Assembly (NCBI RefSeq): GCF_003334785.1
Contig: NZ_QOWV01000004.1
Reading direction: 5' to 3' (one strand)
DNA from: Escherichia coli
Lineage (GTDB): Bacteria > Pseudomonadota > Gammaproteobacteria > Enterobacterales > Enterobacteriaceae
Length of the DNA stretch: 64,000 nucleotides
The notes beneath the pieces are model-generated. The model saw only the letters and a list, made by a program, of their open reading frames with translations. It did no database searches and was not told the origin of the DNA. Both the position numbers and the translations under genes were made by a program. Positions 52,025-53,163 of the stretch are shown one piece after another. Positions within the stretch are counted from its first letter, which is position 1, and every line of letters begins with the position of its first letter.

Positions 52025-52591
52025 ATGAGCAAAGCAGGTGCGTCGCTTGCGACCTGTTACGGCCCTGTCAGCGCCGACGTTATAGCAAAAGCAGAGAACA
52101 TTCGTCTGCTGATCCTCGATGTCGATGGCGTACTGTCAGATGGCCTGATTTATATGGGCAATAATGGCGAAGAGCTGAAAGCGTTCAATGTTCGTGACGG
52201 TTATGGCATTCGTTGTGCGCTCACCTCTGATATTGAAGTCGCTATCATTACCGGGCGAAAGGCTAAACTGGTAGAAGATCGTTGTGCCACATTGGGGATC
52301 ACTCACTTGTATCAGGGGCAGTCAAACAAACTGATCGCCTTTAGCGATCTGCTGGAAAAACTGGCGATTGCCCCGGAAAATGTGGCTTATGTCGGCGATG
52401 ATCTCATCGACTGGCCGGTAATGGAAAAAGTGGGTTTAAGCGTCGCCGTGGCCGATGCGCATCCACTGTTGATCCCGCGCGCCGATTACGTGACGCGCAT
52501 TGCTGGCGGTCGTGGCGCAGTGCGCGAAGTTTGCGACTTATTACTCCTGGCGCAGGGCAAACTGGATGAAGCCAAAGGGCAATCGATATGA
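52025..52591 (+). CDS. kdsC: KDO-8-phosphate phosphatase (HAD family), 188 aa
   Basis: 188-aa ORF with HAD motif LLILDVDGVLSDG. Confidence 0.95.
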   Translation: MSKAGASLATCYGPVSADVIAKAENIRLLILDVDGVLSDGLIYMGNNGEELKAFNVRDGYGIRCALTSDIEVAIITGRKAKLVEDRCATLGITHLYQGQSNKLIAFSDLLEKLAIAPENVAYVGDDLIDWPVMEKVGLSVAVADAHPLLIPRADYVTRIAGGRGAVREVCDLLLLAQGKLDEAKGQSI

Positions 52592-53163
52592 GTAAAGCCA
52601 GACGTTGGGTTATCATTGTGCTATCACTGGCGGTTCTGGTGATGATCGGCATTAATATGGCCGAAAAAGACGATACCGCCCAGGTGGTCGTCAACAACAA
52701 TGATCCCACCTATAAAAGCGAGCATACGGACACGCTCGTCTATAACCCAGAAGGGGCACTAAGCTATCGATTGATTGCTCAACACGTTGAATATTATTCC
52801 GATCAGGCCGTTTCGTGGTTTACGCAGCCGGTACTTACCACGTTTGATAAGGATAAAATCCCGACATGGTCCGTAAAAGCAGATAAAGCCAAGCTGACCA
52901 ATGACCGGATGCTCTATTTATATGGACACGTTGAAGTCAACGCACTTGTGCCAGACTCTCAACTTCGCAGAATCACGACGGATAACGCGCAGATCAATCT
53001 GGTGACGCAGGATGTTACCTCTGAAGACCTCGTCACGTTATACGGAACAACATTTAACTCCAGCGGTCTGAAAATGCGCGGCAACTTACGCAGCAAGAAC
53101 GCCGAGCTGATTGAAAAGGTTAGAACATCCTATGAAATTCAAAACAAACAAACTCAGCCTTAA
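52588..53163 (+). CDS. lptC: LPS export protein LptC, 191 aa
   Basis: 191-aa ORF with N-terminal TM anchor; start overlaps kdsC stop by 4 nt. Confidence 0.95.
   Translation: MSKARRWVIIVLSLAVLVMIGINMAEKDDTAQVVVNNNDPTYKSEHTDTLVYNPEGALSYRLIAQHVEYYSDQAVSWFTQPVLTTFDKDKIPTWSVKADKAKLTNDRMLYLYGHVEVNALVPDSQLRRITTDNAQINLVTQDVTSEDLVTLYGTTFNSSGLKMRGNLRSKNAELIEKVRTSYEIQNKQTQP

Follow-up and report, generated by a model that had tools for sequence, protein, structure and literature searches.

Introduction

The genes lptC, lptA and lptB of Escherichia coli belong to the operon yrbG-kdsD-kdsC-lptC-lptA-lptB, which was described by Sperandeo et al. 2006 and by Martorana et al. 2011, as cited in PMC4986956. 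The overlap of 32 nt between lptC and lptA has already been published, together with two minor promoters within lptC, lptAp1, which is sigma-E dependent, and lptAp2 (PMC4986956). In LptC-depletion strains the transcription of lptC from araBp is turned off and lptAB are driven by the lptC-internal promoters alone (PMC4986956, PMC4072712), and in the absence of lptC expression the sigma-E promoter inside lptC sustains the expression of lptAB (PMC4072712).

According to genome surveys, about 15% of co-directional gene pairs overlap in most prokaryotic groups (PMC6728339). The -4 class is by far the commonest, followed by the -1 and -8 classes, and more than 80% of overlaps are shorter than 30 bp (PMC12548453); in the figure of Johnson and Chisholm 2004, as cited in PMC12548453, roughly 20% of overlaps are 30 bp or more. 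Short overlaps are also places where translation of two genes can be linked: four of the five E. coli -4 pairs tested were tightly coupled by termination-reinitiation (Huber et al. 2019, PMC6728339), and in spacing experiments treated in a 2025 review the coupling grew weaker with longer overlaps and had vanished at -25 nt (PMC12548453).

In this study the junctions of the kdsC-lptB block are described in a window, that is, the whole stretch of 64,000 nucleotides of E. coli DNA that was analysed. The block is very probably the promoter-distal part of the known yrbG-lptB operon in its usual tight packing, in which kdsC and lptC would be coupled across a -4 junction, lptA would initiate independently and the lptC/lptA overlap would be a tolerated by-product.

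The Gene Block and Its Relatives

According to the RefSeq annotation of a K-12-type genome mapped onto it, the window spans yraJ to yhcC of the E. coli K-12 chromosome. A 2.5-kb piece, 52000-54500, matches E. coli K-12 strains, MG1655 included, with 100% identity, and all 5,426 complete E. coli genomes that were searched contain it. On the + strand, at 50027-57990, the gene order is yrbG-kdsD-kdsC-lptC-lptA-lptB-rpoN-hpf-ptsN-rapZ-npr, that is, the operon architecture from yrbG to lptB, followed by rpoN, is present in the window.

The block under discussion, all on the + strand, consists of kdsC (3-deoxy-manno-octulosonate-8-phosphatase, 52025-52591, 188 aa), lptC (52588-53163, 191 aa), lptA (53132-53689, 185 aa) and lptB (53696-54421, 241 aa). 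These genes are present in the RefSeq annotation, kdsC, lptC and lptB being also supported as open reading frames, and the coordinates of kdsC, lptC and lptA agree with the RefSeq annotation of the K-12-type genome. Each product scores far above the cutoff of its NCBIfam equivalog family: KdsC gives 353 bits against the equivalog NF007019 (curated cutoff, 208), LptC 364 bits against NF008142 (cutoff, 230) over its full length 1-191, LptA 368 bits against NF008143 (cutoff, 234) with profile positions 1-184 of 184 aligned, and LptB 539 bits against NF008144 (cutoff, 381). The signal peptide of LptA, residues 1-27, is encoded at 53132-53212 (+).

For comparison, a scan with one genome per species gave 80 Enterobacteriaceae loci. 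The lptA ATG is kept in all 80, and the lptC/lptA overlap is 32 nt in 75 of them, 20 nt in three and 17 nt in two, the relative frame being always the same. At the kdsC/lptC junction ATGA is kept in 76 of the 78 evaluable Enterobacteriaceae loci (the other two were unscored), and the 6-nt gap between lptA and lptB is likewise kept in 76 of 78. Among these loci is L073 (CACSKA010000008.1), which is titled ‘Chryseobacterium sp. 18061’ and bears an Enterobacteriaceae-type lptC-lptA-lptB locus; with L065 (CACSJR010000005.1, ‘Citrobacter sp. 18056’), from the same study, it shares its LptA N-terminus as well as the overlap of 17 nt, which is rare. The L073 assembly is probably mislabelled or contaminated.

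Junctions in the Block and across the Window

An earlier, sequence-only reading of this DNA had placed the kdsC stop over the lptC start and the lptA ATG 32 nt inside lptC, and both placements are borne out. At 52588-52591 (+) the sequence is caatcgatATGAgtaaa, in which the kdsC TGA and the lptC ATG share ATGA, a -4 junction. The lptA ATG is at 53132 and the lptC TAA at 53161-53163, lptA being read in frame +1 with respect to lptC, and the 32 nt of dual-coding sequence (53132-53163, +) encode the LptC tail (Y)EIQNKQTQP* in one frame and the LptA N-terminus MKFKTNKLSL in the other. The serial 4-nt overlaps that the same reading saw in the kdsC-lptCAB block are reduced to just one, the gap between kdsD and kdsC being 20 nt and that between lptA and lptB being 6 nt. 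Its claim that the same pattern recurs elsewhere is right for rapZ/npr and elbB/mtgA, which overlap by 4 nt (ATGA), but rbfA/truB and mlaC/mlaB, both at -1 (TAATG), and folP/glmM, at -8, are of different types. As for mlaB (46715-47008), the gene is intact in the window and encodes 97 aa; it is a frameshifted pseudogene in the annotation of the near-identical reference strain ER1709 (L002, 14716-15008).

Three further overlaps, lpoA/yraN (-43), ubiT/yhbS (-7) and yrbN/deaD (-8), were absent from the earlier list. The annotated genes lpoA (3152-5188) and yraN (5146-5541) overlap by 43 nt at 5146-5188, with the yraN start taken as annotated, and this overlap exceeds that of lptC and lptA. The open reading frame yrbN, of 26 codons (17605-17685), overlaps the deaD start by 8 nt (ATGGCTGA) and is possibly an upstream small open reading frame coupled to deaD. 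Convergent genes also overlap at their 3' ends, namely yhbO/yhbP by 21 nt (9224-9244), yhbQ/yhbS by 14 nt (10007-10020) and yrbL/mtgA by 4 nt (58833-58836).

Altogether, the window has 46 pairs of neighbouring co-directional CDSs, and 10 of these overlap: three at -4, two at -1, two at -8 and one each at -7, -32 and -43. Because this number and the spectrum of classes fit the published surveys, the window is typical and not enriched in overlaps, and among its overlaps those of 32 and 43 nt alone belong to the less common long tail. The generalisation that essential envelope operons are strongly coupled here cannot be maintained, since the overlap frequency is ordinary and many of the genes cited for it, that is, kdsC, the mla genes, rapZ/npr, elbB/mtgA and rbfA/truB, are dispensable for growth or have no connection with the envelope, or combine the two. 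Both the kdsC/lptC and the lptC/lptA overlap have been published before and are ordinary compact-operon architecture. Coupling may operate at the -4 and -1 junctions of the window, and strong coupling is plausible at these junctions only; by analogy, a ribosome ending kdsC would probably reinitiate at lptC by way of ATGA.

Translation Initiation of lptA

The ATG of lptA lies, in another frame, within two codons near the end of lptC, TAT GAA (Tyr-Glu), and the continuation of lptC for ten codons beyond this point accounts for the 32-nt overlap. When wobble conservation was scanned, without bias, along the whole of lptC in 64 Enterobacteriaceae loci (gene mean, 0.67), the maximum, 0.99, was found at 53101-53124, just upstream of the lptA ATG, with secondary peaks of 0.93 at the 5' end of lptC and of 0.92 within the overlap. 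The near-invariance of 53101-53124 suggests that a ribosome-binding site for lptA is embedded in lptC, and the putative initiation region extends over 53101-53131 (+) with a Shine-Dalgarno (SD)-like AAGG at 53116-53119. This element is weak (-3.4 kcal/mol) and its spacing from the ATG is 11-12 nt.

Because the SD-like element is weak and distant, help from upstream ribosomes is possible, and this brings up the explanation that lptC and lptA are tightly coupled: terminating ribosomes would step back 32 nt, or ribosomes translating lptC would open the lptA start, and the output of LptA would be locked to that of LptC. A matched output would be sensible for LptC and LptA, which act in one complex, and weak SDs occur at other overlapping junctions too (npr, -3.3; mtgA, -2.2; mlaB, -3.3 kcal/mol); between the downstream genes of overlapping junctions and the other genes no clear difference in SD strength was seen. 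However, in the systematic spacing experiments coupling had disappeared at an overlap shorter than this one (-25 nt, PMC12548453), and lptAB are expressed with araBp-driven lptC transcription off and the lptC-internal promoters remaining (PMC4986956, PMC4072712). Moreover, folding indicates no stable RNA structure around the lptA start for ribosomes to melt (z = -1.04), the initiation region upstream of the ATG is conserved, and the overlap length is not conserved beyond Enterobacteriaceae, one relative being without an overlap. Tight coupling is therefore improbable as the explanation of this junction, and strong coupling across the 32 nt is judged unlikely.

Independent initiation of lptA is most likely, because a conserved ribosome-binding region is embedded in lptC and because -32 is beyond the coupling range. 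From this region lptA would be translated without need of lptC translation; and since araBp-driven lptC transcription is off in the depletion strains, translation of lptA from the lptC-internal transcripts is de novo.

Folding of 53079-53180 (z = -1.04) and 52540-52640 (z = +1.04) indicated no structured RNA element in either segment, and an Rfam scan of the whole window gave no RNA family in the kdsC-lptB block. The Rfam matches elsewhere in the window include SraG (pnp/rpsO, 20979-21150), naRNA4 (rbfA/infB, 23007-23077) and ArcZ (beside arcB, 60329-60436), in addition to leader matches for S15, rimP and greA.

Promoters inside lptC

It had also been claimed that promoters for both lptA and lptB must sit inside upstream coding sequence. 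For lptA this is in accordance with the published lptAp1 and lptAp2, but for lptB it is not, as lptAB are expressed together from the lptC-internal promoters (PMC4986956, PMC4072712); a separate lptB promoter is described in neither of these papers, and PMC3326320 makes no mention of an lptC-internal promoter. In the preferred reading, lptA and lptB would be transcribed from the main yrbGp promoter and, in addition, from the minor promoters lptAp1, under sigma-E, and lptAp2.

A sigma-E-like motif, GGAACAA-N16-TCTGA, was found by pattern matching inside lptC at 53044-53071 (+), and the ATG of lptA follows some 60 nt downstream. It is a candidate for the published lptAp1, the publications giving a sigma-E promoter in lptC without coordinates. 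In the whole window the pattern GGAAC-N17-19-TCNNA was found six times against 5.4 expected, no more often than by chance. In other genera the -35 and -10 bases of the motif at 53044-53071 drift at lptC wobble positions and are only partly conserved. Because the motif is not enriched and drifts across genera, the sequence alone is no proof of an lptC-internal promoter; the proof comes from the published work (PMC4986956, PMC4072712). A scan of 49700-54600 with a strict sigma-70 consensus gave two sites against 5.2 expected, none of them inside lptC, and such a scan is uninformative for the weak lptAp2.

Other sigma-E-like sites were seen in the window. A near-perfect consensus, GGAACTT-N16-TCAAA, lies at 38611-38638 (-), within the Rfam greA leader match (38563-38684) and upstream of greA, a gene that belongs to the sigma-E regulon. 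[quoted passage not shown] Furthermore, the wording on yhbG/b3201 in a passage of Rhodius et al. 2006 (PMC1312014) is not an obvious match for a promoter that lies within lptC, 60 nt ahead of the ATG of lptA.

Evolution of the Overlap

The best 120 LptA homologues listed were of Enterobacteriaceae only, and the distant relatives, seven loci with 36-48% LptA identity, came from a 50%-identity representative search and contig look-ups. The lptC/lptA spacing in them is -26 in Pantoea sp. Aalb (L086), -20 in L087 and L088, -14 in L089, -8 in Candidatus Providencia siddallii (L085) and +21 in L084, an AT-rich locus in which the lptC reading frame ends early. In all six distant loci that have lptC directly before lptA, the ATG is within homologous lptC codons, [T/A]AT-GAA or GGA (Tyr/Asn-Glu/Gly). 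Because the ATG stays in homologous codons while the spacing ranges from -26 to +21, it is the lptA start that is fixed and the lptC stop that moves. In L084 (21% GC; 2440-2503) a spacer of 21 nt separates the end of the called lptC from the ATG of lptA, and in it the ancestral ELIQKVKTSYE-coding sequence is still recognisable in another frame; either the overlap was abolished by a frameshift or the assembly is in error. The seventh locus, L090 of Serratia symbiotica (LN890288.1, 250-3004; a reduced genome, locus GC 19%), has the order kdsC-lptC-lptB-lptA, with lptA after lptB at a distance of about 190 nt and no rpoN following, that is, a rearranged lptCAB arrangement.

Within Enterobacteriaceae, conservation of the overlap by codon position is 0.99/0.99/0.87, as compared with flanking wobble values of 0.72 in lptC and 0.61 in lptA, and nearly all the variation is at the third codon positions of lptC, equivalent to the second positions of lptA. 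This pattern is the signature expected of two superimposed reading frames. The LptC tail YEIQNKQTQP* is 94-100% conserved, and LptA residues 3-5 vary (F/S, K/R and T/I) with the positive charge kept. Purifying selection would thus be acting on both frames, the n-region of the LptA signal peptide absorbing changes that are synonymous in lptC, and the overlap itself would be a tolerated by-product of the LptC tail running past a fixed lptA start.

The conservation of this tail is so high, nevertheless, that the overlap sequence could be under selection for a function and not simply be tolerated. It is conceivable, but decidedly unlikely, that 53101-53163, comprising the embedded ribosome-binding site and the A-rich overlap, is a selected control element which sets the LptC:LptA ratio on the long mRNA by occlusion or partial coupling and which is bypassed by sigma-E-driven lptAp transcripts under LPS stress; if this were true, the conservation of YEIQNKQTQP would reflect RNA-level or regulatory constraint and not protein function. 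Very improbable, too, is the explanation that the overlap is a selected regulatory device: ribosomes on the last ten codons of lptC would occlude the lptA start and fix the LptC:LptA ratio on the yrbGp mRNA, and the stress-induced lptAp transcripts would escape. Such a device would agree with the unusual conservation of the LptC tail and its underlying nucleotides in Enterobacteriaceae and with the separate stress-responsive promoters, whose lptAB transcripts arise inside lptC, beyond its start codon. However, the overlap length ranges from 8 to 32 nt, the overlap is lost in one relative, and two superimposed protein-coding constraints account well enough for the conservation.

The Start Codon of lptA

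That the overlap is an annotation artefact, the true lptA start being either the upstream TTG 53111 (53-nt overlap) or the downstream GTG 53168 (no overlap), is scarcely credible, even though TTG 53111 is the first possible start in the open-reading-frame list, some database gene calls for LptA are 191-197 aa instead of 185 aa, and a passage of Rhodius et al. 2006 (PMC1312014) considers an ORF beside yhbG to be possibly misannotated. In six Enterobacteriaceae loci (L033, L065, L068, L071, L073 and L074) the sequence that separates the TTG from the ATG, AAAAGGTGAGAAC, contains an in-frame TGA, so TTG 53111 is not a conserved start; nor is GTG 53168, because codon 13 varies among V, M, I, A and F, and a start there would cut off the Lys-rich n-region of the signal peptide. 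In addition to its conservation in the 80 loci and in the distant relatives, ATG 53132 agrees with the NCBIfam LptA profile, whose alignment begins at residue 1, and with crystallised mature LptA (PDB chains), which starts at residue 27 or 28, as expected once a signal peptide of 27 residues has been cleaved. The overlap therefore survives the check for a non-overlapping downstream start of lptA.

A programmed frameshift producing an LptC-LptA fusion was also rejected, on the grounds that lptA lies in the +1 frame, that the lptC-frame overlap has no X XXY YYZ heptamer and that one relative lacks the overlap.

Significance

The 32-nt overlap and the lptC-internal promoters are already known and short overlaps are the commonest types of bacterial gene junction, so as a discovery these observations, being details of a heavily studied E. 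coli locus, have little weight. The comparative results are a small addition to the published record: they point to an lptA start that is fixed in a Tyr/Asn-Glu/Gly pair, to a variable lptC stop and to absorption of lptC-silent changes by the LptA signal peptide. Knowledge of the overlap and of the internal promoters is of practical use in the engineering of this essential locus, where editing of the last ~60 nt of lptC hits the ribosome-binding region, the start codon and the signal peptide of lptA, and edits further upstream in lptC can damage the lptAB promoters.

Comparison with Known Systems

The closest system is the published E. coli operon yrbG-kdsD-kdsC-lptC-lptA-lptB itself, which has the same locus, gene order and 32-nt overlap as the window, together with published promoters inside lptC, for one of which the window has a candidate motif; nothing was seen to differ. 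With the gene pairs known to use termination-reinitiation, at -4 (ATGA) or -1 (TAATG or TGATG), the window shares the motifs at kdsC/lptC, rapZ/npr and elbB/mtgA (-4) and at rbfA/truB and mlaC/mlaB (-1). Unlike these pairs, lptC/lptA has no stop/start motif at -32 and lies outside the range of spacings in which coupling has been observed. It resembles the long out-of-frame overlaps of bacteria, which are also co-directional, tens of bases in length and under constraint in both proteins, but it is distinguished from other long overlaps in that the downstream partner here is the n-region of a signal peptide, which tolerates substitutions that are silent in the upstream gene.
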